A DNA stretch of 64,000 nucleotides from Deltaproteobacteria bacterium (GCA_016196825.1 JACPWY010000019.1:22644-86643); one strand, 5' to 3'; positions 2,796 through 60,243 are shown, numbered from the stretch's first letter. Numbers and translations: made by a program. Notes: generated by a model from the letters alone, not told the origin.

Positions 2796-4018
2796 AACCG
2801 CGCCTTAAGATTTTTCATATCATCACGCGTCTGAATGTTGGTGGGGCGGCGCTCTACAATATCCTTCTGGCCGATGGACTGGCGGATCTGGGGCACGAGG
2901 TGTGGCTTGTGTACGGAACGGTCGAGTCGTCAGAGAGCGAGATGTTCGATTACATGGACCGGAAGGAGTATCGGTTTGTGAAACGATATATCCCCGAGCT
3001 CATGAGAGAAATTCGATTGGGGAAGGACCTCATCGCTTTCTGGAAACTTTTTGTCCTGATCGCGCATGAGCGGCCCGATGTGATCCATACACACACATCG
3101 AAAGCAGGGCTTCTGGGTCGGCTGGCGGCTTGGCTATTGCGCGTGCCGGTCAAGATTCATTCGTATCATGGGACGGTCTTTCAGGGGTATTTCGGCGGAT
3201 TGGCGAGTCGAGCGATTGGCTCATTCGAAAAATTCCTGGGGCAACGGTGTGAAGCCATCTTTGCCGACACAGAGACCGTCGTGAAGCAGGCGACGAGTCG
3301 AGGTGTTGTGCCCAGCGATCGTGCCTTTTCCATGCCGCTGGGACTGGAGCTTGAGCCCTTCGCGGATCTGGCGGGTTTTCGGGGGCGGTTGCGCCGCCAT
3401 TTGGGGATCGGGAAGAGCACGCCTCTCGTCGGTATTGTGGCCCGTCTCACGCAGATCAAAGACGTCGAGACCTTTTTGCGCTCGGTCCCTGCGATTCTCA
3501 AAGCCCATCCCGAGACCCACATCGCCTCAGTGGGCAATGGTGAGCTTCGGATGCAGCTCGAGGAAGAGGCTCGCCGCATGGGGATTGCGGAGCGAGTCCA
3601 CTTTCTGGGTTTTTGGAGAGAGCTCCGCGAAATTTATGCCGACATCGATCTCTTGGCGCTCTCATCGCTTTCAGAGGGGTGCCCGGTCGCAATTCTCGAG
3701 GCGATGGCTTCCGGACTTGCCGTCGTGTCGACGAGCGTCGGCGGCGTCCCCGATGTTGTTCGGGATGGTAAGAACGGACTTCTGGTGCCTTCGCAAGATT
3801 CTGAGGCGATGGCGCAAGCCGTGAATCGATTGCTCTCGGATCGCGATCTCGCCCGACAAATGGGCGCGGCCGGCCAGCGTCTTGTTCTGGAGAAGTTCAC
3901 CGTTGCAGCGTCAGTCACCGCGACCGAAAGCCACTATGTGCGGCTGGTGGGGGAGAAGGCCCGAATCCCAGTTATGGGTGGTCTGATCGGGGGTAAAACT
4001 CTTTCCCATGATTCCTGA
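2792..4018 (+). CDS. glycosyltransferase, GT4/GT1 (GT-B) family
   Basis: TTG start overlaps the upstream stop (TTGA). N-terminus KIFHIITRLNVGGAALY and C-terminal EGCPVAILEAMASGLAVVSTSVGGVPDVV (E-x7-E like) are typical of GT4 enzymes. Confidence 0.75.
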   Translation: MKPRLKIFHIITRLNVGGAALYNILLADGLADLGHEVWLVYGTVESSESEMFDYMDRKEYRFVKRYIPELMREIRLGKDLIAFWKLFVLIAHERPDVIHTHTSKAGLLGRLAAWLLRVPVKIHSYHGTVFQGYFGGLASRAIGSFEKFLGQRCEAIFADTETVVKQATSRGVVPSDRAFSMPLGLELEPFADLAGFRGRLRRHLGIGKSTPLVGIVARLTQIKDVETFLRSVPAILKAHPETHIASVGNGELRMQLEEEARRMGIAERVHFLGFWRELREIYADIDLLALSSLSEGCPVAILEAMASGLAVVSTSVGGVPDVVRDGKNGLLVPSQDSEAMAQAVNRLLSDRDLARQMGAAGQRLVLEKFTVAASVTATESHYVRLVGEKARIPVMGGLIGGKTLSHDS

Positions 4019-5711
4019 CGTGGTCGACGGGCTCGTAAAGATTGTAGAACGGTGGGACGGGGATTTGTGTCCAGTGATTGTTGGTAAGTCCGGCGGCGGC
4101 GGCTTCGAATTCGGCAGAGATTTGCCAGCTCTGATCGCCTTTGTTTTCGTCCCAGTGGTGGGAGAGGCGGGCGGCGCGGGATGGGGTTTCAGCTGGAAGT
4201 TCTGAGCGGCGGGCGACGAGGACTCCGCACGCTTTGTGTTTCTGGGCGTGGTCGAGAATTTTTTCCGTTGTGTCGAGTTTTTGCGTGAGAAGACGCGGCG
4301 CGAGGCGATTTGCGCGAGAGAAATTGCGGCCGAGGTGGGTGGATACGACCCAGTCAGTGATGTCGTCGGTGATGAGTTCACAGGTGAGAATCCCAGGCCG
4401 GTTCTCTTTTATCCACCTGGCAGTTTGGTCGAGATGAGTGAACTCACGGACGGCAGGGGCGCGATAAAGGAGGAAGGCGAGCCTGCCTCGCCACGGAAAG
4501 GCCGGAGGAAACGCGAGAGCGGCGACGAGCAGACCAGCGGCCCAGAAAGGGAGCGCGCGGAGAAGCGAGCTCACTAAAATGAAACCAAACGGCAGGACAT
4601 AGAAAATTCGGTATAGGATGTAGCCGGTAGGCATGAGCCAGCAGAGAAGGAGTGCCGTTGCCGGACAGAGGACCACAAAAAACGGGGCGATGGTGAGCGC
4701 CCCTTCGATCGGAAATTGTCGGAAAAAGACCAGTGCGAGGAGGAGGCTCACTACTCCCGAAATGCCGATCGTGTCGGCGAAGGGGCCGGTGCGTGACCAA
4801 ATCTTAAGGGACCCGTATCGGGTGAGTTCGGGGACCGTGTTGCGAATGTGGGCGATGAAGAAGTAGCCATTGATCCGCATCGCCACCCAACCCGCGACTG
4901 CCGATAGAATGCAGGCAATGAGGAAGGCTCGGAGGAAGAGACGCCTCTTGGGGGCGGGGGCCTTCTCGTACCAATGGCCGATGAGGATCGCCGCTGAGGC
5001 GAGGGCAGTGAGGATGATCTCTTCGGCGTGGTTGAGGGCCATCACCGCCAGGAGGAGGGGAATGGTCCACAGCACCTTTCGCCGGCGTTGAAGGAAATCG
5101 AGGAGCGTGGTTTCGACCTGCACAAATGCGATAAGTGCGAGAATAGTGGAGGAGGTCGAGTAATAACGGAGACCAAAGATATTTGATCCGAAAAGGCCGA
5201 GATACGCGAACGTCTTGAGTGCGGGGGCTCTTTTGTCGTCGCTGAGCCTGAGCGCAAATCTGTAAATCATGCGGGCCGTGAAGGTGAGCCAAAAACTGCT
5301 GTAAAGGCCGAGGGCGAATCGACGGTACGGGATAGGAATCGAGCCCAAGATTGTCCAGCCCCAGAAATAGGAGAACTTGTGCCAGGTCTCACTCGTTCCT
5401 ATGGTTGGGATCGTCTGCCAGCTGTAGAGGCGTCGAAAATGCTCCCAGGCATCGGACGGGTACTCAAGATACGCGCCGGGCAGCGCCAGAACGACAAAAA
5501 CCGCGAGCCACGGAAGGAGCGTTTGCAGGCCAGCCTCCCGAGCGGCTGTGAAGAACCATGCCAAGTAAAGAGCGTGGAGCCCCCAAAAGATTATTGTGAC
5601 AGCGGGAACTGGGATCTGGAGCGCCCAGGCGATGATATAGACCGCCAAATAGGGAAGAAAGAGGAGGGCCCCCGCTTCGTCAGGTCGCGGCAGAGATCGC
5701 GTGAGATTCAT
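3972..5711 (-). CDS. polytopic integral membrane protein (>=12 predicted TM helices) with a C-terminal soluble domain; possible GT-C-like glycosyltransferase or polymerase
   Basis: 579-aa ORF, very hydrophobic with many W/F/L-rich helices over about 430 aa, then a hydrophilic 150-aa tail. Its 3' end overlaps the GT4 gene convergently by 47 bp. Function inferred only from topology and context. Confidence 0.4.
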   Translation of the reverse strand: MNLTRSLPRPDEAGALLFLPYLAVYIIAWALQIPVPAVTIIFWGLHALYLAWFFTAAREAGLQTLLPWLAVFVVLALPGAYLEYPSDAWEHFRRLYSWQTIPTIGTSETWHKFSYFWGWTILGSIPIPYRRFALGLYSSFWLTFTARMIYRFALRLSDDKRAPALKTFAYLGLFGSNIFGLRYYSTSSTILALIAFVQVETTLLDFLQRRRKVLWTIPLLLAVMALNHAEEIILTALASAAILIGHWYEKAPAPKRRLFLRAFLIACILSAVAGWVAMRINGYFFIAHIRNTVPELTRYGSLKIWSRTGPFADTIGISGVVSLLLALVFFRQFPIEGALTIAPFFVVLCPATALLLCWLMPTGYILYRIFYVLPFGFILVSSLLRALPFWAAGLLVAALAFPPAFPWRGRLAFLLYRAPAVREFTHLDQTARWIKENRPGILTCELITDDITDWVVSTHLGRNFSRANRLAPRLLTQKLDTTEKILDHAQKHKACGVLVARRSELPAETPSRAARLSHHWDENKGDQSWQISAEFEAAAAGLTNNHWTQIPVPPFYNLYEPVDHVRNHGKEFYPRSDHP

Positions 5712-5749: not shown

Positions 5750-6403
5750 ATGATTCTTCTGTCGTATCCCCTCTCCCCAACGACGCCCGCTTACGGCGGT
5801 GGAAAGCGCCCGCAATTTGAACAAGTGCGCTCACTCGAAAAGGGGGACAGTTGCAACATGCTCGAGCTTTTGCTCACCAACCATTCCGGCACCCACATCG
5901 ATATGCCAGCCCACTTTATTAAGAGCGGACCAACGGTGACCCAGGCCCCATTGGATTTTTGGTTTACGACCAACGTGGGCGTGATGGATCTGAAACGGTG
6001 CCCGGCCCCCGGGCAATTGCTCGGATCAGAGGATCTTCCCCTAGCCTCAATCTCTGCTGATTGCGAGGCTCTTCTCCTTAAGACGGGGTGGGGCGGGCAT
6101 AGAGGTGAAAACGTGTATTGGCAAAACCCTCCCGGGTTTCAGCCTGAGCTCGCGGCTGACTTGCGCCAGCAGTGTCCGCGTCTGAGATTCTTCGGATTCG
6201 ATCTCATCTCGCTCTCGAGCTTTGTGAACCGAGAGGAGGGACGAAGGGCCCACCGAGCCTTCTTGGGTGGTGACCAGCCGATTCATCCGATCGAAGACAT
6301 GGACCTTTCGGCACTTCCAGCCCCCATTCACAGCCTTCTCGTTTCTCCGTTTTTCCTCGAAGGGGGGGACGGAGCCCCTGTGACGGTCTGGGCCAATCTC
6401 TAG
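5750..6403 (+). CDS. cyclase family protein (kynurenine-formamidase-like fold)
   Basis: Contains HSGTHIDMPAHF, matching the HxGTHxDxPxH motif of the putative cyclase family. Confidence 0.6.
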   Translation: MILLSYPLSPTTPAYGGGKRPQFEQVRSLEKGDSCNMLELLLTNHSGTHIDMPAHFIKSGPTVTQAPLDFWFTTNVGVMDLKRCPAPGQLLGSEDLPLASISADCEALLLKTGWGGHRGENVYWQNPPGFQPELAADLRQQCPRLRFFGFDLISLSSFVNREEGRRAHRAFLGGDQPIHPIEDMDLSALPAPIHSLLVSPFFLEGGDGAPVTVWANL

Positions 6404-6592
6404 CCTGAAAGTGACAATAAATTTCGAGGAAAAATGCGTCAGGTGGGCTACTACAGCGACGTACTCACTTTTTTAAGCCGAGTCGTATCCATAGATACGG
6501 GGAGGTTTAAAAAAGTGAGTACGTCGCTGTAGTAGCCCACCTGACGCAAGCCTTGGCGGTTTTTACCGAAATTTATTGTCACTTTCAGGCTA
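6401..6592. repeat. 192-bp nested near-perfect palindromic element (MITE-like or large structured RNA)
   Basis: Outer arms tagcctgaaagtgacaataaattt (6401-6424) and aaatttattgtcactttcaggcta (6569-6592) are perfect inverted repeats. Inner 38-nt arms at 6437-6474 and 6508-6545 are perfect inverted repeats. The central loop contains gtatccatagatac. The element is AT-richer than its surroundings and intergenic between the cyclase and FkbM genes. Confidence 0.6.
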
Positions 6593-6654
6593 GGGGCCAG
6601 CCATTTGACATTGGTCGCGCCCGAAAACCATTATAGACAGATCAAAGGGGTCGT

Positions 6655-7500
6655 ATGAGCTCAACATCCGAAACGTTCTCAAGGAGAGTGTTTAGGTTTT
6701 TCGCGGATTCGGTTGTGAATGGTTTGGCGCTGAACAAGGCCAACCGTGTGACATGCCAGCTGGCTGGCCGTCTCTCCCCCACGTTTCATCTCACTCACAA
6801 TGGAATCGACTACGTCTTCGCTTGTCCGAATCCTCTCACCCGCTGGCGAGCGGAAACGTTTGCGGACAAGGAGCCCGAAACCCTGGAGTGGATCGATACA
6901 TTCCAAAAGGGTGCGACGCTGTTCGACATCGGAGCCAATGTTGGAATTTATGCGATCTACGCCGCGAAACGCGGGATCAACGTGATGGCCTTTGAGCCGG
7001 AATCTCAAAATTACGCGCTGATCAATAAGAACGTCTATCTGAATGGTGTGGCCGATCGCGTGAAGTGCCTCAGTGTCGCGCTCTCGGACTGCGATGGCAT
7101 CGACTACCTCTACATTCCGGAATTTCAGGCTGGCGGTGCGCTCAACAACTTTGGTTCGGCCATCGATCTTAACCACCAAGAGTTCAGCCCCGCCTTCAAG
7201 CAGGGCGGACTGTCCTACTCGCTGGATTCCTTCGTGCAGAAGTACACTGAATCCTTTCCCAACCACATCAAGATCGATGTGGATGGGATCGAATTTGCCA
7301 TCGTCCGAGGAGCCGAAAAGACCCTGAGGGATCTGCGGCTTCGATCGCTCTCGATAGAACTCAACGAGGTTTTGCCCGAGTCACCGGCCATACAGACCTT
7401 CATTGAAGGAACGGGTCTTAAGTTTGTCCAAAAGAAACACGCCGCGATGTTCGACGACACCCAGTACAAACAAATTTTTAACTACGTGTTCGGTCGCTGA
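6655..7500 (+). CDS. FkbM family methyltransferase
   Basis: Motif LFDIGANVGIYAIYAAKRGINVMAFEPESQNYALINKNV matches the FkbM-family SAM-binding core (DIGAN.G…FEP). Confidence 0.75.
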   Translation: MSSTSETFSRRVFRFFADSVVNGLALNKANRVTCQLAGRLSPTFHLTHNGIDYVFACPNPLTRWRAETFADKEPETLEWIDTFQKGATLFDIGANVGIYAIYAAKRGINVMAFEPESQNYALINKNVYLNGVADRVKCLSVALSDCDGIDYLYIPEFQAGGALNNFGSAIDLNHQEFSPAFKQGGLSYSLDSFVQKYTESFPNHIKIDVDGIEFAIVRGAEKTLRDLRLRSLSIELNEVLPESPAIQTFIEGTGLKFVQKKHAAMFDDTQYKQIFNYVFGR

Positions 7501-28200: not shown

Positions 28201-29865
28201 TTACGCCGCTGGTCCCGAGCTCCTTTTCAGTTCCTCGATCTCCTTTTTAAGCTCAATCATCTTGAGCTCGCGTCCCACGGTGAGCTTTTGAAATCGCTCG
28301 AGTTCGGCCAGACGAACAAGCTCTCTGGTTCGTTGTTCCGCGACCTCTTTCTCGGCGCGTTTTTGGGCGGTCACGTCACGAGCAGCGGCGAAAACCCCCA
28401 ATACGTTTCCACGGACATCCTTATAAACGGAGGCGTTGTAAAGAACGTCGGTCAGCTTTCCATATTTGTGTCGAATCGTGAGCGGGTAATCAGATACGAA
28501 GCTTTTTGCAAATACCTGTTTGTAGCCCTCCCGCGCCTTCCCAGGCTCCGTGAAATAGTTCGAGAAGTCGGAGCCGATCAACTCCTGTCGCGAGGTGCCC
28601 GTGACTCTCATGGTCGCTTCATTAACGTCCATGATTTTGCCGTCAGGACTGATGGTCACGAGTGGATCTAAAGAGGCCTCAATCAAGCTTCGCGAATATT
28701 GTGACGCTTGTTTCTGCGCGGTCACGTCACGAGCAGCGGCGAATACGCCTGACACATTCGCGGTTCCATCCTTATAAACGGAGGCGTTGTAAAGAACGTC
28801 GCTCAGCTTTCCGTCTCTGTGCCGAATCGTGAGCGGATAGTCAGCGACAAACCCTTTGGCAAAGACTTGTTGATAACCTTCTCGTGCTTTCTCAGGCTCC
28901 GTGAAATAGTTCGAGAAGTCGGACCCGATCAATTCTTCTTGGGAAACACCGGTAACCTTGGTTGTGGCCTCGTTAACGTCCGTGATCTTACCATCGGCGC
29001 TAATGGTCACGAGTGGATCTAAGGAAGCCTCGATCAAGCTGCGGGCGTATTGCGACGCTTGTTTCTGCGCGGTCACGTCGCGAGCGGCGGCAAACACGCC
29101 CAGCACATTTCCGCGAACGTTCTTATAAACAGACGCATTGTAAAGAACATCGGTCAGCTTTCCGTCCTTGTGCCGAATCGTGAGGGGATAGTCGGAGACA
29201 AACCCTTGAGCGAATACCTGCTTATATCCCTCTCGCGCTTTCTCAGGCTCCGTGAAATAGTTCGAGAAGTCGGACCCGATCAATTCTTCTCGGGAAATAC
29301 CCGTAACCTTGGTTGTGGCCTCGTTAACGTCTGTGATCTTACCATCGGCGCTAATGGTCACGAGTGGATCTAAGGACGCCTCGATCAAGCTTCGGGCATA
29401 TTGAGCAGCTTGCTGCGAAGCCTCTTTCTGGGCCGTCACATCGCGTGTAATGGACGAGACACCCACGACGTCGCCTATTTTATTCTTAATTGGCGACACC
29501 GTCAGGGAGACGTCGATAATCACGCCATCTTTTTTAATGCGCTTCGTATCGTAATGCTCAGTTTTCTCACCTCGTTTAATCTTTTCTATGACGGGCGCCA
29601 ATTCGTTGGAATGGTCTTTCGGCACCAGGGTGTAAATTGATTGGCCGATCATCTCATCTGTTGTGAATCCGTAAATTCGTTCGGCGCCTTCGTTCCAGCT
29701 GGTGATCGTGCCGTCCAGATCCTTGCCTACGATCCCATCGTCGGCGGACTCGACAAGTGATGCGAGCCGGTCGCGATCATCCTCGAAACTGCTCGCCATC
29801 GATCCTTTTTCCTTCGAATACTTTCTGTATTGTGATTTTATCGGCACTTGGGTTTGCTCATGCAT
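28201..29865 (-). CDS. PAS-domain-only signalling protein with three near-identical tandem PAS repeats and C-terminal coiled coil
   Basis: An N-terminal PAS block is followed by three copies of a ~106-aa PAS unit (TAQKQASQYARSLIEASLDPLVTISADGKITDVNEAT…VFAAARDV). The tail is ELVRLAELERFQKL… with no output domain. Confidence 0.7.
   Translation of the reverse strand: MHEQTQVPIKSQYRKYSKEKGSMASSFEDDRDRLASLVESADDGIVGKDLDGTITSWNEGAERIYGFTTDEMIGQSIYTLVPKDHSNELAPVIEKIKRGEKTEHYDTKRIKKDGVIIDVSLTVSPIKNKIGDVVGVSSITRDVTAQKEASQQAAQYARSLIEASLDPLVTISADGKITDVNEATTKVTGISREELIGSDFSNYFTEPEKAREGYKQVFAQGFVSDYPLTIRHKDGKLTDVLYNASVYKNVRGNVLGVFAAARDVTAQKQASQYARSLIEASLDPLVTISADGKITDVNEATTKVTGVSQEELIGSDFSNYFTEPEKAREGYQQVFAKGFVADYPLTIRHRDGKLSDVLYNASVYKDGTANVSGVFAAARDVTAQKQASQYSRSLIEASLDPLVTISPDGKIMDVNEATMRVTGTSRQELIGSDFSNYFTEPGKAREGYKQVFAKSFVSDYPLTIRHKYGKLTDVLYNASVYKDVRGNVLGVFAAARDVTAQKRAEKEVAEQRTRELVRLAELERFQKLTVGRELKMIELKKEIEELKRSSGPAA
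28440..29400. repeat. three tandem ~318-bp near-identical repeats (each encoding one PAS domain)
   Basis: DNA blocks beginning gtcacgtcacgagcagcggcgaa… recur at about 28365, 28715 and 29065 with few substitutions. Protein repeats differ at about 10% of positions. Confidence 0.75.
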
Positions 29866-30013
29866 GGGCCACCTCGCTCAATTTTGTCGGAATTATTCTA
29901 GGCCACACCTTCGCCAAAAGCATTCCTGGATTTTCGTCTTTTCTGGGTCCAACAAAAAAGAAATATTGTTGCGCAGCACGGCAGACCTTCGCTGTGATCA
30001 TTGCCACTTAGAC

Positions 30014-30165
30014 ACTTTCTACTCGGAACGATCAAAACACCCTGGCCCTTCGTTCTCCGGTATCGCTTGATCGCCAACTTTTAAAAGAAAGGGCCCGTTC
30101 TCCCCGGTCCGGGACATTTTGCCTCGCTCCTCCCGACGAAAGGGATTTAGGGATAGGCTCTTAGC
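30014..30165. repeat. MITE-like palindromic repeat, copy A (variant core)
   Basis: Shares the left arm ctttctactcggaacg…cctggcccttcg and right arm ggacattttgcctcgctcctcccgacgaaaggg…taggataggctct with copy D (56697-56874). It has a different central segment. It lies in a divergent intergenic region. Confidence 0.6.
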
Positions 30166-30250
30166 CCAACGCATTAACGCGCTAGACTGCCTAAAACACT
30201 TCAGAATTTCGCCTGTTTTGCCGATAATAGAGAAGTCCTCCACCCAAACC

Positions 30251-39141: not shown

Positions 39142-40374
39142 TCAGAGAGTCGAGCTTGGTGCTGTTCCATAGATCTCCGCCAGAGTGGGGGTGACAGCTC
39201 GGGTGAAGAGTCTAGCCCCGTTGATGTTGAAATGATTGACGTCGTAATAGAGGCCCCGAACCTCGTCTTCCGAAAGACTGGAGAAAAGATCGGCCGGCAC
39301 AACGCCTGCCACAAAGAGATTGGGAGCGGGAAAGCGCCTCCTCCAGTCTTGGCGCAACACGATTGTGTGATCCGCGCGATCGAGAAACCGAGGCATGTCC
39401 AAGAGCACGACCTTTGTCCCGTGGGTGAGCGCGAGGTCCACCGCCTTGGCGAAAAAATAGGCGTCGTAAGGGGGAAGCGGTCGGTTGAGCGAGGAGAAAT
39501 TGTTTTGTGTGGCGGGGGAAAGAATAGTCCCTGTCGCACCGGTCGAAATATTTTTTTCTTGGAAGGACGGGTCTTCAGGGAAAGTTCTTGCGCTAAGAAG
39601 AGCGCCCGTTGAGGAGATGGTGGGATCGGATGGGTGAGAGTGTCTAGAACCTATCTCATAAATAGTTTCTACTCGGCTGGTCAAAAAGCCCAGGCTCTTC
39701 GTCCTCCGCGCTCGGCTGCTCGACGTGCCCAGAGGGCACGCCTCCGCGGCCTCGCTTGTGCGTCCTTGATCCAGGGCTTTTTGACTCAGCCTCGCTACGA
39801 AACTATTTATGAGATAGGTTCTATTTCTCAGAAGGCCTAAGACATGCCGTGGAGCCCCTAGATAGGAGTAGGCCCAGAGTCTGAATTTCGAGGGAAGATC
39901 GAGGCCGTTGAGCTCCCCGATGTGTTCTCCCGCGATCCACCAGTAGAGCGAGTAGTAGTGGGGTTCCTTTCGGCCCGCATCGCCCTCGGGTGGATCGATG
40001 ACGACCGTGTGCACTCGGCGTCGTTGGAGGAGCTCTTTCAAAAGAAGATAGATCAAATCTTCCCCTCGCCAGTTTGCGCCAAGATTCAAGGTGACCAATT
40101 TTTTTCCAGGCACCAGGGTCTCGGCCAAGAGATCGGTGTTCACTGCGTTCCAGATGTAAGACGATCCCAAAACAAGGAGATCGATGTCGCCGGTTTCTTC
40201 GAATATTGAATGAGCCATGAACTGGTAGTGGCCGCCGTGGCTCGGTGCGGAATGAAACTTTTGCTCCGGTCGATAGCCCGGCAGGCTCGGAAGAGCCCAC
40301 GGCAGAACTAACAGGAATGCGAGCAGAGCGCAGAACAGCCAGCCCTGCATGCGAGTGGAAAAGGCTGGCTCCAT
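39142..40374 (-). CDS. DltD/AlgJ-like (SGNH-type) extracytoplasmic protein carrying an in-frame MITE-like insertion
   Basis: N-terminal signal/TM (WLFCALLAFLLVLPWALP). C-terminal DAYFFAKAVDLALTHGTKVVLLDMP…LYYDVNHFNINGARLF resembles DltD/AlgJ acyltransferase-partner proteins. Residues about 178-245 are encoded by repeat copy B (39645-39823) with no stop. Confidence 0.45.
   Translation of the reverse strand: MEPAFSTRMQGWLFCALLAFLLVLPWALPSLPGYRPEQKFHSAPSHGGHYQFMAHSIFEETGDIDLLVLGSSYIWNAVNTDLLAETLVPGKKLVTLNLGANWRGEDLIYLLLKELLQRRRVHTVVIDPPEGDAGRKEPHYYSLYWWIAGEHIGELNGLDLPSKFRLWAYSYLGAPRHVLGLLRNRTYLINSFVARLSQKALDQGRTSEAAEACPLGTSSSRARRTKSLGFLTSRVETIYEIGSRHSHPSDPTISSTGALLSARTFPEDPSFQEKNISTGATGTILSPATQNNFSSLNRPLPPYDAYFFAKAVDLALTHGTKVVLLDMPRFLDRADHTIVLRQDWRRRFPAPNLFVAGVVPADLFSSLSEDEVRGLYYDVNHFNINGARLFTRAVTPTLAEIYGTAPSSTL
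39645..39823. repeat. MITE-like palindromic repeat, copy B (full)
   Basis: Perfect 24-bp terminal inverted repeats (agaacctatctcataaatagtttc / gaaactatttatgagataggttct). Inner arms are tactcggctggtcaaaaagcccagg / ccagggctttttgactcagcctcg. Conserved core cttcgtcctccgcgctcggctgctcgacgtgcccagagggcacgcctccgcggcctcgcttgtgcgtcct. Confidence 0.7.
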
Positions 40375-43467: not shown

Positions 43468-43532
43468 TAGAACGTATTTCATAAATAGTTTCTACTCGGC
43501 TGGTCAAAAAGCCCAGGCTCTTCGTCCTCGCG
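43468..43532. repeat. MITE-like repeat, copy C (left half only, solo arm)
   Basis: tagaacgtatttcataaatagtttctactcggctggtcaaaaagcccaggctcttcgtcctcgcg matches the left 65 bp of copy B. No right arm is present. Confidence 0.6.
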
Positions 43533-45003: not shown

Positions 45004-47748
45004 TTACGGCCAGTAACGCATGATCGCGAAGTCGTAGCTGGCCGCCTGCGCATTACCCACCGCCACAATCTTGCCGTCGGACTGCAGCGCCAACCCAAAG
45101 ATGCTGTTGTTGTTGGCGGCGCCGCCGAGGCCTGTGTAATCCGTCTCGACCTGGCCGGTGCTGTTGAAGCTCGCGTCGAGGGCGCCGGCTGAGGTGAGCC
45201 GCATCATCGCGAAGTCTTTCTCCGTGTTTGTCGAGTAGCCGCCGATGATGATGTTGCCCGAGCTATCGATCACAAGCGCCGTGCCATCCGCCGCACCCGC
45301 GCCAATCGCGGTGGTGTAGGTGCCGGCAGTGCCGAAGGTGGCATCGACGGCACCCACAGAGGTCAAGCGCGTCACCGTCATCTGGTTCGAACCCGTCGCG
45401 CTCACGCCGCCGAGGACGATGTTACTGCTCGAGTCGATGGCCATTGCCTTCACGATGTCGGTGCCGGCAGTGACATCAACCGTGGTGTAGCCCGAGGTGC
45501 CGAAGTCCGTGTCGATCGCACCGACCGAGCTCACCTGGGCCACCGCGAACTGATAGGTGCCGGAGAGAGCCGTGCCGGCCATCACGATTTTGCCGCTGGA
45601 AAGAATCGAGAGGGCATAGCAATCATTCTGTGAATTTGCGATCGGGCTGAACACCGCTCTACCCGTGGTGTTGAAGGTCGTGTCGGCCGTTCCATCCGTG
45701 CCGTAGCGAGCGATGGCGAAACGCTTCTTGCCCGCGAGAGAGATGCTGTAACCGACGGCAACCGCTTTGCCATTGCTGTCGAGCGCGAGGCCGCGGAGCA
45801 CATCGTCTTGGCCGTTGAACTGCGTTATGGCGATGCCGCTCGTGCCGTAGGCGGTGTCGATCGCACCGGCCGAAGTCAACCGTACCACCGAGAAGTTGAG
45901 GTCACCCGAGGTGGCCGCCGAACCGCCGACTAGAACTTTGCCATCGGCCTGGATGACTACCGCGTAGGCAACATCGTTTCCACCCGCCGAAACATCGATC
46001 GAAACCTTACCGCCCGTACCGAATGAGGCGTCGAGCGCGCCGGCGGTGCTGTAGCGGGCGACCGCGAAATCCGTGTCGGAGCCGTTGTAGCTCGAACCGG
46101 CGACCACAATCTTGCCATCGCTCTGCAGGGCCACAGCGTATCCGTAGGCATCCGCAGAACCTATCGACGAGGCCACTTGGCCCGTGGTGTTGAAGGTCGT
46201 ATCGAGCGAGCCGGGGTTGCCGATGCCTGTGCCGGTCATCGCGCGGGTCGCGCTCGAGGTCGAGGCATCCGGAAGAGTGTAGTTGACCGTTAGCGTATCG
46301 CTCGCGGCACCGAGGGCGGTCGGGCTGAAGCGGACCACGATTGTGCAGGTGGCGAGGCTTCCGATTGAATTGCCACAGGTGCCGCCGGTGCCGGGGTACG
46401 CACCGCCCTTATATGTGTACGGCGCCGAGAGGGCCGCCCCACTCACGACCGTGGCCGAGCCGTGCTGCGAATTGGTCACCGTGAAGGACTTATCCGTATT
46501 TGTGGTGTTGATGTACTTCGAACCGAAGCTGTAGGTCGCGCCATCTGAAATCGAAAGTGAGGCATAGCCGAGGCCCGTGCCAGCCACATCGCGGGAGGCG
46601 GTCTGCGTGGCGACGCCATCATTATAGGTGAGGTTGATGGTGCTGCTCGTGGCGCCCGTAGCCGTTGGGGAGTATGTCACGATGAGCGTGCAGGTCGCGC
46701 TGCCGGCAAGCGAGGCGCCACAGGTGCCGCCAGTGCCGGGATATGAACCACCCTTGTAACCGTACGGAGCGGCGAGGGCCGGAGTTGTGTTCGAGAACGA
46801 AGTTGCCGTTGCGCTACCCGCGTTTGTGACCGTGAACGTCTTGTCGGCCGTGAGTGTCTCGTAGGTGTCGGGGTAGGTGTAGGTGGCGCCGTCCGAAACC
46901 GAGAGAGAGGCCGGGGTTTGGCCCGTGCCCTGCATCGCGCGCGTGGCCGATTGTGTGCTTGTGCCATCATTGTAAGTGAGGCGGAGCGTGTCCGAGCTCA
47001 GCACCGCGGCCGACGGGGTGTAGCGCACAACCACCGTGCAGGTGCCACTGGCCGCGAGGGTCGCGCCGCAGGTGCCCCCGGTGCCGGGGTAGGCGCCGCC
47101 CTTGAAGGTGAACGGGGCCGCCATCGCGGGGGTGCCAGCCGCCATCGCCGTCGCGCCCACCGTGCCCGTGTTAGTCACGGTGAAACTCTTGTCCGAGGTG
47201 TTGCCGATCACAATCGTTCCATAGTCGTAGGTGGCGCCATTCGAAATCGAGAGGACCGCGCCGTCGGAGGCCGCACCAGTCAGCTGCGTGATGTCCGAGG
47301 TGAGGACGGTCTTGCTGTCGACCCCGTTATAGTAGGTCAAGAAGAGCTCGCCTGTCGCGGCGCCACTTGAGGTCGGGCTGAAAGCAAGAACCACGGTGCA
47401 GGTCTCACCGACCTGAATCACAAGGCCGCAAGTTCCGCCGACGCCGGGGTAGTAACCGCCGAGAAAGGTGAACGGGGCAGTGAGCGACTTGGGTTGCGGG
47501 GCACTCGCGAGGAGGCCACCGTTGTTGGAAAGGGTCAGGTTGGCCGTGACCGTTCCGCCCACGCTTGCCGTGCCGAAATCGATCGGTCCGTTTGTCGCCA
47601 CGAGATTGGCCGGACCAGAGATGAGCTTATCGGAATCTTTTTTCTGCTTGCGGCAAGAAACTGCGGACGCAGCTAAGATAAGCGCGAACCCAACGTATTG
47701 GGCGAAGCGCAGAGAGGCTTTAATTTGTGAGCAGCTACCAACGTACAT
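45004..47748 (-). CDS. large secreted/lipoprotein with N-terminal Gly/Thr-rich Ig-like repeats and C-terminal delta-60-type repeat region
   Basis: Signal/lipobox-like N-terminus (ALILAASAVSC). At least five repeats share FTVTN-G…PY.YKGG.YPGTGGTCG…C…V.(R/T)(Y/F).P(T/S). The C-terminal half has repeated TDFAVARY…G.LD..FG..G motifs, which are delta-60/beta-propeller-like. Confidence 0.6.
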   Translation of the reverse strand: MYVGSCSQIKASLRFAQYVGFALILAASAVSCRKQKKDSDKLISGPANLVATNGPIDFGTASVGGTVTANLTLSNNGGLLASAPQPKSLTAPFTFLGGYYPGVGGTCGLVIQVGETCTVVLAFSPTSSGAATGELFLTYYNGVDSKTVLTSDITQLTGAASDGAVLSISNGATYDYGTIVIGNTSDKSFTVTNTGTVGATAMAAGTPAMAAPFTFKGGAYPGTGGTCGATLAASGTCTVVVRYTPSAAVLSSDTLRLTYNDGTSTQSATRAMQGTGQTPASLSVSDGATYTYPDTYETLTADKTFTVTNAGSATATSFSNTTPALAAPYGYKGGSYPGTGGTCGASLAGSATCTLIVTYSPTATGATSSTINLTYNDGVATQTASRDVAGTGLGYASLSISDGATYSFGSKYINTTNTDKSFTVTNSQHGSATVVSGAALSAPYTYKGGAYPGTGGTCGNSIGSLATCTIVVRFSPTALGAASDTLTVNYTLPDASTSSATRAMTGTGIGNPGSLDTTFNTTGQVASSIGSADAYGYAVALQSDGKIVVAGSSYNGSDTDFAVARYSTAGALDASFGTGGKVSIDVSAGGNDVAYAVVIQADGKVLVGGSAATSGDLNFSVVRLTSAGAIDTAYGTSGIAITQFNGQDDVLRGLALDSNGKAVAVGYSISLAGKKRFAIARYGTDGTADTTFNTTGRAVFSPIANSQNDCYALSILSSGKIVMAGTALSGTYQFAVAQVSSVGAIDTDFGTSGYTTVDVTAGTDIVKAMAIDSSSNIVLGGVSATGSNQMTVTRLTSVGAVDATFGTAGTYTTAIGAGAADGTALVIDSSGNIIIGGYSTNTEKDFAMMRLTSAGALDASFNSTGQVETDYTGLGGAANNNSIFGLALQSDGKIVAVGNAQAASYDFAIMRYWP

Positions 47749-56696: not shown

Positions 56697-56874
56697 AGAG
56701 CCTATCCTAAAACCCTTTCTACTCGGAACGGTCAAAATGTCCTGGCCCTTCGTCCTCCGCGGTCGGTGTCCTCGACGTGCCCAGGGGGCACGTCTGCGGG
56801 ACCTCCCTTGTGCGTCCTCGGTCCAGGACATTTTGCCTCGCTCCTCCCGACGAAAGGGTTTTAGGATAGGCTCT
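56697..56874. repeat. MITE-like palindromic repeat, copy D (full)
   Basis: Perfect 23-bp termini agagcctatcctaaaaccctttc / gaaagggttttaggataggctct. Core cttcgtcctccgcggtcggtgtcctcgacgtgcccagggggcacgtctgcgggacctcccttgtgcgtcctcg. Confidence 0.7.
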
Positions 56875-58527: not shown

Positions 58528-58567
58528 AGACGACAGAGGCTAGCTCAAAGGCGAAGAGGTGTGAATA

Positions 58568-58750
58568 CTAATCCCTCAGCTCGATTGAATTTGGCCACTG
58601 GGCGGGTGCTTTTGACCGACCACTTCGTCCTCCGCGTTCGGCTCCTCGACGTGTCCAGGGGGCACGCCTCCGGGGCCTCTCTTGTGCGTCCTCGTGGTCG
58701 GCCAAAATCCCCTCGCCGATTGGACCAAATTCAATCGAGCAGAGGGATTA
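58568..58750. repeat. MITE-like palindromic repeat, copy E (full, divergent arms)
   Basis: Termini ctaatccctcagctcgattgaatttgg / ccaaattcaatcgagcagagggattag (1 mismatch). Core cttcgtcctccgcgttcggctcctcgacgtgtccagggggcacgcctccggggcctctcttgtgcgtcctcg. It contains the stop codon of the downstream gene. Confidence 0.7.
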
Positions 58751-59527
58751 GTTTTGGTGTTCCAGCTGGGTCAGCGGGAAAAGCTGCACAGCCATACGGT
58801 AGACCTCGGTCGGCTCATTTTCGACCTCGGCCTGATCCATCAGCTCGTCCTGAAATCGTCGGATCATCTTTTTCGCACTGGCCAGCGTCTTCGGGTTCAT
58901 CGGGAAGGTGATCCAGGTGAAATCACGTTGCGGAACGGGGATCGTCCCAAGCTTTTCCTGGGCCAAAGTGAGGGTGTCGCCGTGTGACTTCTTGATCCAT
59001 TCGTTGGGTGTGTCTTCAGTTGTGGTCAGAGAGGGTTTCGAGCGACGCCAGCCTCCGCTTTCCAGCTGCTCTAAATAGCCGCTTCGGACGAGTCGCTCCA
59101 TCGCGTCGGCCGCCTTCTTACGCGGAATGCCCAGCCGCTGAGCGATCCAATCTGGGTCGCCCTGAAACGCATTCATCGTCGCTAAATTCAAGATCGCGAA
59201 GTTCTCCCACTCAGTGAGGAGAAAATACTTATCTGCCTCCATTCGGAGGTAGCGATCGGAATTGGGGCGCCGGTTCGAGCGGGCCGCCTTTTTCTCGATG
59301 AGATCCAGCAGCGCGCCCCGTTCGGGTGGGGGGAGTGCCATGCTGTCGGTGAGCTTGCGTGCCAGCTTAGCCGAGACCCGACGTTTACCGAGGAGAACCA
59401 GACTGAGGGTTCCGGCGCTGATGCCAAGCCGCCGGGCGTAACCTCTCACCGACATCCTTGGGTTGCGGCTTCTGAGGGCCGTGAGTTGGGACTGAAGGCT
59501 ACTTCGAATGGCCAGTTGTTCTTCCAT
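58748..59527 (-). CDS. HTH-domain protein resembling the TIGR02147 family
   Basis: SVRGYARRLGISAGTLSLVLLGKRRVS is an HTH. The overall 259-aa architecture resembles what I recall of TIGR02147 proteins. Unverified. Confidence 0.45.
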   Translation of the reverse strand: MEEQLAIRSSLQSQLTALRSRNPRMSVRGYARRLGISAGTLSLVLLGKRRVSAKLARKLTDSMALPPPERGALLDLIEKKAARSNRRPNSDRYLRMEADKYFLLTEWENFAILNLATMNAFQGDPDWIAQRLGIPRKKAADAMERLVRSGYLEQLESGGWRRSKPSLTTTEDTPNEWIKKSHGDTLTLAQEKLGTIPVPQRDFTWITFPMNPKTLASAKKMIRRFQDELMDQAEVENEPTEVYRMAVQLFPLTQLEHQN

Positions 59528-59592
59528 GGGGAAGGCCTATACGTGACTCAATGCATCTAAGTCTAGGATTATTGATACAGATCGTATCCGGT

Positions 59593-60243
59593 CTATGGAT
59601 ACAGGGTGTGGTGTACGAAATTATCTTTATGAATTCGATAGTTAACGGAAGGGAGCGGGGCTAGGACGGTGGGGCGGGCGGCCACAAATCGAAGGGCCCA
59701 TTCTCGGTCTTCCCCGCGGGAGAGCCGGGTATCGAAAGGGCCAATCGCATCAGCGGCCGCCTTGCGAAAGAGGCCCAACCACAGACCGCAGGCGACGAGG
59801 TTATCTGCTTTCAGTGTCTCGGGCGTGAGTCGGGCTACGAAGGGTGTTTTTGCCATGGGTGTTTCGATACTCCGCCCGTTTCTGTCGATCACCCGTCCGA
59901 TCTGGCCGAACACCCCATCCCAACCCCCCGACCGGAGCAGCTCCAGACGAGCCGCCACAGAGCCGGCAATGAGTTCATCATCGGAGTCCAGGAAGGTGAA
60001 AAAACGGCGGGTGCAGGCATTGAGCGCGATGTTGCGGGCCGCGGGAATGCCAACCGGCTCCTCCACGCGAATGAGTTGAATGGAGGGACTTCTCCAAATG
60101 ATCGGTTGGATTGAGCCGTCATCCACCAGGATCAACTCCGCGCCGGCCGTTAGGTCATACTCACAACTCGCGATCGCAGTTTCAAGAAAACGCGGCGCCA
60201 CATCTCGCGCCACCATAAGAATGGAAACGTCCCGCAACCCCAT
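59593..60243 (-). CDS. glycosyltransferase family 2
   Basis: ATG at 60243 gives MGLRDVSILMVARDVAPRFLETAIASC…ELILVDDGS (GT-A). The longer ORF to 60408 is possible. Confidence 0.6.
   Translation of the reverse strand: MGLRDVSILMVARDVAPRFLETAIASCEYDLTAGAELILVDDGSIQPIIWRSPSIQLIRVEEPVGIPAARNIALNACTRRFFTFLDSDDELIAGSVAARLELLRSGGWDGVFGQIGRVIDRNGRSIETPMAKTPFVARLTPETLKADNLVACGLWLGLFRKAAADAIGPFDTRLSRGEDREWALRFVAARPTVLAPLPSVNYRIHKDNFVHHTLYP

Follow-up and report, generated by a model that had tools for sequence, protein, structure and literature searches.

A 194-bp nested palindrome lies between a cyclase-family gene and an FkbM-type methyltransferase gene in the stretch of DNA analysed here, a 64,000-nucleotide window (GCA_016196825.1 JACPWY010000019.1:22644-86643) from an uncultivated bacterium labelled ‘Deltaproteobacteria bacterium’ and represented by a metagenome-assembled genome (MAG). 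Our analysis indicates that this element is probably a small non-coding mobile repeat, that is, a non-autonomous transposon or MITE (miniature inverted-repeat transposable element), of a new family. We favour this reading because the element is small, non-coding and AT-richer than its host, because it has long terminal repeats and sharp ends, and because it is joined to more than one flank and has a size variant elsewhere in which the ends are conserved. Its length falls within the ~50-500 bp of MITEs, it has no coding capacity, and it is bounded by terminal inverted repeats.

Sequence inspection, a repeat finder and a base-by-base script place the palindrome at window positions 6400-6593 (Table 1). 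The outer arms, which form the terminal inverted repeats, are complementary at 27 of 27 positions, and complementarity is 91% when they are extended to 34 nt; the base pair immediately beyond them, 6399/6594, is non-complementary. Nested within is a second pair of arms that are complementary at 42 of 42 positions and enclose the central loop, and the symmetry of the whole is broken by a bulge, AGCCTTGGCGG, which stands on the right side and has no partner on the left. With TA as the target duplication the element would be 190 bp long; with CTAG, 186 bp. A preliminary description of this DNA had reported a nested palindrome of 192 bp, and the palindrome is real, with true ends one base outside the interval 6401-6592 first given. 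The arms are indeed perfect; the lengths assigned to them in that description (24 and 38 bp) were slight underestimates, the 34 nt assigned to the loop was a slight overestimate, and the small palindrome GTATC-CATA-GATAC noticed within the loop is present. The element is also AT-richer than the window, as had been stated (45.4% vs 55.7% GC).

Folding predictions are consistent with an exceptionally stable hairpin, both as RNA (-153.9 kcal/mol, z = -22.4, with 0 of 200 shuffled sequences as stable) and as DNA (-93.1 kcal/mol, z = -22.1). The only open reading frames (ORFs) within the element encode 21-43 aa and are mirrored on the two strands, and a search for homologues of the peptides returned no candidates for the 43-aa ORF and one weak, irrelevant match for the 32-aa ORF. 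Neither the outer nor the inner arm has a second occurrence in the 64-kb window at up to 3 mismatches, and none would be expected by chance.

More importantly, the element is joined to more than one flanking sequence, and all of these junctions share a single boundary. Contigs encoding exactly the window's cyclase were looked up, and the additional flank that they revealed, termed flank B, was traced through the protein encoded by its first gene. The MAG contig JACOTR010000028.1 at NCBI (GCA_016178225.1; hereafter L001) carries a cyclase protein and an element that are 100% identical to those of the window, and it matches the window up to 6593 save for one mismatch and deletions of 41 and 138 bp. 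Past the terminal CTAG, L001 continues from the first base onward into unrelated DNA, flank B, which is absent from the whole window and whose first gene encodes a 298-aa secreted protein. Assemblies in the Logan collection, which are built with k = 31, show the two ends of the element separately. In sequencing run SRR12113417, a contig with flank B (L029) ends ...ctgcctga followed by ctagcctgaaagtgacaataaatttcggta, which takes in precisely the first 30 nt of the element in its right-arm version. The run also yields a contig with the cyclase gene that stops after precisely 30 nt of the left arm (L002), and one with FkbM whose start lies within the right arm (L005). Two further runs behave alike (L003, L004 and L006), and L002 and L003 both break at 6429, 30 nt into the element. 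A stop 30 nt (k-1) into the element is what would be expected if the next 31-mer had several predecessors; on this logic, the 31-mer at 6400 would have at least two left flanks. At the right end two flanks are seen directly, FkbM and flank B; at the left end the second flank is implied by the contig breaks. Our conclusion is that two or more copies of the element, or as a minimum two structural contexts for it, are present in the sampled population, with a shared boundary of exactly CTAG...CTAG.

The same contigs yield several further observations. Those on the FkbM side start 26 nt (L004 and L005; window 6568) or 21 nt (L006; 6573) into the element, vs the 30 nt expected, which suggests that the assembly branches once more, 4-9 bases inside the FkbM flank; this could be a third junction sharing CTAG plus GGGC, or a strain variant. 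Flank B begins (L001 8961-8966) with TCAGGC, a repetition of the last bases of the element before TAG (CTTTCAGGCTAG followed by TCAGGCAGAG), and this 6-nt direct repeat may be due to chance. The segments missing from L001 correspond to window 3775-3815 (41 bp) and 5108-5245 (138 bp), or L001 positions 6322-6323 and 7613. The GT4 glycosyltransferase gene, 408 aa in the window, has a predicted product of 329 aa in L001, where the window's 579-aa ORF is also split into two genes (367 and 176 aa). L001 is either a strain variant whose polysaccharide locus is decaying or a contig with assembly errors.

A shorter relative was identified in a different metagenome and belongs to an unrelated organism. 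A 19-mer of the arm occurs at 13 loci in JGI/ENA metagenome contigs, and only one of these, L010, is a true relative; the other 12 are chance occurrences that lack CTAG and a partner arm, several of them within ORFs. L010 is a 1,075-bp contig from a microbial mat (48% GC) in which a 77-bp hairpin, CTAGCCTGAAAGTGACAATAAATTCGGGCAAAAAC-CGCTGAC-GTTTTTGCCCGAATTTATTGTCACTTTCAGGCTAG, lies downstream of a response-regulator gene. The first and last 24 nt of this hairpin, CTAG included, are identical to the window element, and similarity reaches ~38 nt inward from each end and includes the GCGGTTTTT.CC stretch, which is asymmetric, on the right of the window element. Both arms of L010 differ from those of the window element in the same way, and pairing is kept. 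In effect, L010 is the window element minus an interior of ~115 nt. We prefer to see in the nested shape an ~80-bp basic hairpin unit, comparable to the 77-bp L010, that carries an extra palindromic module of 114 bp in its loop; alternatively, the short form would be an internal deletion of the long one. The end of the L010 contig (931-1075) also folds back on itself: the palindrome is followed by 34 nt that exactly repeat, as their reverse complement, the 34 nt that precede it. The hairpin has here produced an assembly artefact, at a contig end with low coverage (1.7x).

Other collections were searched as well. The outer arm gave 0 exact-word matches with a 23-mer among GTDB species representatives (a 19-mer gave 9, all by chance), and neither the outer nor the inner arm has a match in IMG/VR. 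Searches of plasmids and phages by blastn, using the whole element and a 39-nt end, gave either nothing or chance matches with E ≥ 2, and a literature search with the arm sequence returned only unrelated primers.

The position and boundaries of the element suggest how it may have inserted. All four of the junction ends available for comparison (window left, window right, flank B and L010 left) read C-TA-G, and this is the more striking in that CTAG is about 4-fold under-represented in the window, with 61 occurrences observed vs ~243 expected from base composition. We propose that a DDE transposase encoded elsewhere in the genome would bind and cut at the 27-bp terminal inverted repeats, and that insertion would have been into the 5′-CTAG-3′ that holds the cyclase stop codon; the empty site would then read ...AATCTCTAGGGGCC..., with one CTAG. 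The central TA might be duplicated, as in IS630/Tc1-mariner transposition, in which case the element proper would read GCCTG...CAGGC. It is also possible that the whole CTAG is duplicated in the manner of an IS5-type element, so that the element would read CCTG...CAGG. By either mechanism TAG would be recreated, and both the frame and the stop codon of the cyclase would be left untouched. An insertion that recreates TAG in this way predicts an intact cyclase protein, which matches the sequence seen: the protein is full length, at 217 aa compared with 208-247 aa for most of its homologues. The strict association with a depleted tetramer also provides a handle on the transposase family.

Several points weigh against a MITE. 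The CTAG (or TA) at both ends of the element, which is what a check for target duplications recovers, is palindromic and hence inseparable from an extension of the inverted repeats. An empty site was sought among homologues of the cyclase and none was found, the nearest homologue being only 50% identical. Perfect arms of 42 and 27 bp are unusual for an old MITE, and they call for either a recent origin or a process that homogenises the arms. The copy number in the metagenome amounts to at least two junction contexts, and these could belong to different strains; two structural alleles of one locus would give the second right junction, although not easily the implied second left flank. As for L010, the right arm may in part be a copy of the left one, which would make its arm symmetry partly artificial. 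The family is also rare in current data, with one relative from very large collections, and no autonomous insertion sequence (IS) with matching ends, and no transposase, was detected among 26 window ORFs scanned against Pfam or in GTDB representatives, IMG/VR, plasmids and phages; this last negative counts as weak evidence.

Comparison with characterised repeats places the element in familiar company. The IS630/Tc1-mariner family and its MITEs, such as RUP of Streptococcus pneumoniae, insert at and duplicate TA, in keeping with the C-TA-G at all four ends. In the account of Tenzen & Ohtsubo (1991) given in PMC2170065, IS630 prefers TA within 5′-CTAG-3′, and for ISY100 some 24-30 bp of each end is enough in cis (PMC2170065). 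No IS630-type transposase or full-length IS with the element's ends was found in the collections searched, and an IS5-like duplication of CTAG may instead account for the junctions. Terminal repeats of ~20-30 bp and a CTAG at both ends are likewise features shared with the IS5 family, for which ISfinder describes duplications of either 4 bp (YTAR/CTAG) or 2-3 bp (TA/TNA); however, no IS5-type transposase was found among the window ORFs, and no annotated IS end was matched in plasmids or phages.

The Correia elements of Neisseria (CREE/NEMIS) resemble the element in being ~100-200 bp long, non-coding and intergenic, with terminal inverted repeats of ~26 bp and TA at their junctions. They differ in occurring in hundreds of copies per genome, compared with the at least two junction contexts seen here, and in sharing no sequence similarity with it; unlike the element, they are not palindromic over their full length and contain no nested, perfect inner hairpin of 42 bp. 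Chunjie, a MITE from Geobacter uraniireducens, is also deltaproteobacterial and has size variants (178-235 bp), a likeness drawn from its description only; it is present in tens of copies with documented direct repeats, and nothing points to a relationship with our element. ERIC/IRU and REP/REPIN sequences are imperfect palindromes of ~100-130 bp that fold as RNA hairpins. The element's arms are far longer (27-42 bp), perfect and AT-rich, and REP sequences differ further in that they are linked to a RAYT gene, occur in many copies and carry GTAG (or CTAC) at the foot of a stem that is short and GC-rich, whereas the element ends in CTAG and no RAYT or Y1 transposase was detected among the 26 window ORFs. 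The element works like MITEs of the Correia, RUP, ERIC and Chunjie type but shares no sequence with the collections searched. It is an ordinary kind of element, and specialists in mobile DNA would find none of this surprising.

Correia elements that are co-transcribed with neighbouring genes form hairpins that are processed by RNase III, with effects on those genes (PMC10969869; PMC2649163), and ERIC insertions at the 3′ ends of genes alter mRNA decay (PMC10969869). Co-transcription of the present element with the cyclase gene would give an RNA containing a perfect duplex of 42 bp. By analogy with the Correia and ERIC cases, this duplex could be an RNase III substrate or a 3′-end stabiliser, and it might alter the stability of the cyclase mRNA.

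The converse proposal is that mobility is irrelevant and that the palindrome is a cis-acting structured RNA or DNA hairpin with a host function, for example a 3′-end stabiliser, an RNase III site that uncouples cyclase from FkbM, or an unconventional terminator. The extreme stability of the hairpin and its perfect arms are compatible with such a role, as is its position, beginning exactly at the cyclase stop codon between two genes on the same strand, and the matching differences in the arms of L010 preserve pairing. We nevertheless consider it unlikely. A scan of the whole window against Rfam at gathering thresholds gave 0 matches, and at E ≤ 10 the locus matched only MIR161 (47.4 bits vs 90) and mir-2985 (37.2 vs 68), both below threshold; these are generic look-alikes of long hairpins. 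No U-tract follows the hairpin on either strand (GGGCCAGCC on the plus strand and AGATTGGCC on the minus strand), and a scan for terminators was empty at the element. An intrinsic terminator is thereby ruled out, in agreement with the preliminary description, which had judged a simple terminator unlikely. In addition, L010 lacks the whole 114-bp inner hairpin, the symmetry of its arms is perhaps partly an assembly artefact, and the occurrence of the element beside two unrelated flanks, and of L010 beside unrelated genes, amounts to three contexts, which is unlike a locus-specific regulator. Of the three options raised in the preliminary description, the MITE is the one supported by the two right flanks, the implied second left flank, the shorter relative and the CTAG boundaries, and the structured non-coding RNA is unsupported, there being no Rfam family and a relative without the inner hairpin. 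The single copy genome-wide that it had named as a refuting outcome runs counter to what the sampled population shows.

About equally unlikely, in our estimation, is an origin from two nested elements, in which a loop-targeting module of ~114 bp (6435-6548) sits within a REP/REPIN-like or MITE hairpin of ~80 bp, moved by a hairpin-recognising enzyme of the IS200/IS605-RAYT or IS110 type in place of a DDE transposase that acts on the terminal repeats. L010 would represent the outer unit alone, and the second repeat family of the window, described below, shares this architecture, with a conserved core inside outer arms that vary between copies. However, the inner module by itself was not found in the window or in IMG/VR, no direct repeat flanks it, the GTAG that is a hallmark of REP sequences is absent from the base of the stem, and there is no RAYT, IS110 or IS605 gene among the ORFs scanned; L010, moreover, can be explained equally well as an internal deletion of the long form.

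Less probable still is a site of DNA rearrangement, whether an inverton or cruciform that switches the polysaccharide locus or the boundary of a cassette, for which the two right flanks would be two alleles. Location in a polysaccharide cluster, two right-hand continuations in one sample, and the 41-bp and 138-bp deletions that L001 also has in neighbouring genes all fit this idea. It would predict contig breaks at 6426/6427, where the two orientations diverge, and the contigs break instead at 6429, as they would for different left flanks. The window and L001 have the same orientation, no recombinase was found in the scanned ORFs, flipping an interior that is nearly palindromic would change little, and L010 lies in an unrelated context. 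Finally, an origin in assembly, as a fold-back or a chimera, is hardly credible for the window element, even though the end of L010 folds back and contigs from short reads are interrupted within the element. Its two sides have unique flanks that differ from each other; its 30-nt loop is non-palindromic, and it has a bulge of 11 nt; a MAG contig deposited independently carries an identical copy; and its ends are seen separately in Logan contigs from three runs. Retrons, attC sites, protelomerase telomere sites and CRISPR were also rejected on anatomical grounds: the vicinity has no gene for a reverse transcriptase, integrase or Cas protein, the dyad is occupied by a loop of 30 nt, and a repeat array is lacking.

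Table 1. Coordinates of the nested palindrome, its parts and the adjoining genes, in window positions.
Feature	Position	Strand	Description
Cyclase-family protein gene (PF04199)	5750-6403	+	217 aa; upstream of element
Whole element	6400-6593	no strand	194-bp nested palindrome; identical copy at L001 8767-8960
Left outer arm (terminal inverted repeat)	6400-6426		27 bp, perfect; CTAGCCTGAAAGTGACAATAAATTTCG
Cyclase stop codon TAG	6401-6403	+	within the element's left CTAG
Left subterminal stretch	6427-6434		AGGAAAAA; imperfect pairing with 6560-6566
Left inner arm	6435-6476		42 bp, perfect
Central loop	6477-6506		30 nt, non-palindromic; 5-bp mini-hairpin GTATC-CATA-GATAC at 6485-6498
Right inner arm	6507-6548		42 bp, perfect
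Right subterminal stretch	6549-6566		11-nt unpaired bulge AGCCTTGGCGG (6549-6559), then TTTTTAC
Right outer arm	6567-6593		exact reverse complement of 6400-6426; terminal bases CTAG
Promoter-like site TTGACA-18-CATTAT	6605-6634	+	10/12 consensus match; 0.7 such sites expected by chance in the region
FkbM-type methyltransferase gene (PF05050)	6655-7500	+	downstream of element

The surroundings of the element form a polysaccharide-biosynthesis region that encodes nucleotidyl-transferases, epimerases, GT4 and GT2 glycosyltransferases, NeuB and a DegT-type aminotransferase. The promoter-like site upstream of the FkbM gene belongs to the native flank between that gene and the element, and lies outside the element itself. 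In a polysaccharide cluster, rearrangements mediated by the repeat could yield variants of surface structure. If our reading of the element as a MITE is right, it adds one more small family, from an uncultivated deltaproteobacterial lineage, and the consequences are modest. A more practical point is that the element marks a place where metagenome assembly breaks or mis-joins: two deposited contigs disagree exactly at its end, and one of them may consequently be chimeric, or the disagreement may reflect a real deletion or rearrangement variant.

The window contains a second family of palindromes of ~180 bp each, located at 39645-39823, 56697-56874, 58564-58755 and ~30007-30167, with a fragment at 43468-43529. 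The preliminary description had held the two families to be unrelated, and this is correct, as their similarity is not significant (64 to 414 of 500 shuffles score as well). That a further family is present shows that this genome tolerates such repeats, which counts in favour of the MITE reading. Members of the second family are nested palindromes with a conserved core of ~70 nt, CTTCGTCCTCCGCG...CTTGTGCGTCCT; their inner arms measure 16-19 nt and their outer arms 23-31 nt, and they gave no match in Rfam. They fall into two related sub-types, apart from one copy whose outer arms are unrelated and whose arm context is flipped. Flanks read TA..TA or TAA..TAA, and these, together with ends of the GAGCC/GAACC type, recall the IS5 family.

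The most unusual observation concerns the outer arms of this second family, which are perfect or nearly so within a copy (94% in the third copy) and yet different between copies. Such co-variation may reflect selection for the hairpin, homogenisation of the arms, or a core module residing in different palindromes. We see an outside chance that the genome holds a class of ‘palindrome-within-palindrome’ repeats, comprising these two unrelated families of nested hairpins of ~180-195 bp, in which modules invade hairpin loops or an active process keeps the arms perfect; template switching or hairpin-templated repair may be candidates for a process that maintains the arms. Such a class, if it exists, would represent a mechanism of mobility or maintenance distinct from the cut-and-paste biology of MITEs.

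Two other features of the window can be accounted for in ordinary terms. A GTATCC/GGATAC palindrome at 59584-59603, which had been linked to the element in the preliminary description, amounts to no more than a stem of 6 bp around an 8-nt loop. With 14 occurrences of GTATCC/GGATAC across the window, the link dissolves into a chance hexamer. Tandem in-frame repeats are present in two genes, at 28359-29360 and 45161-47480, and are ordinary domain repeats: one set, repeating every 351 nt, belongs to a multi-PAS sensor gene, and the others, with periods of ~170 and 350 nt, belong to a 914-aa protein with a DUF5122 beta-propeller and Ig-like repeats.

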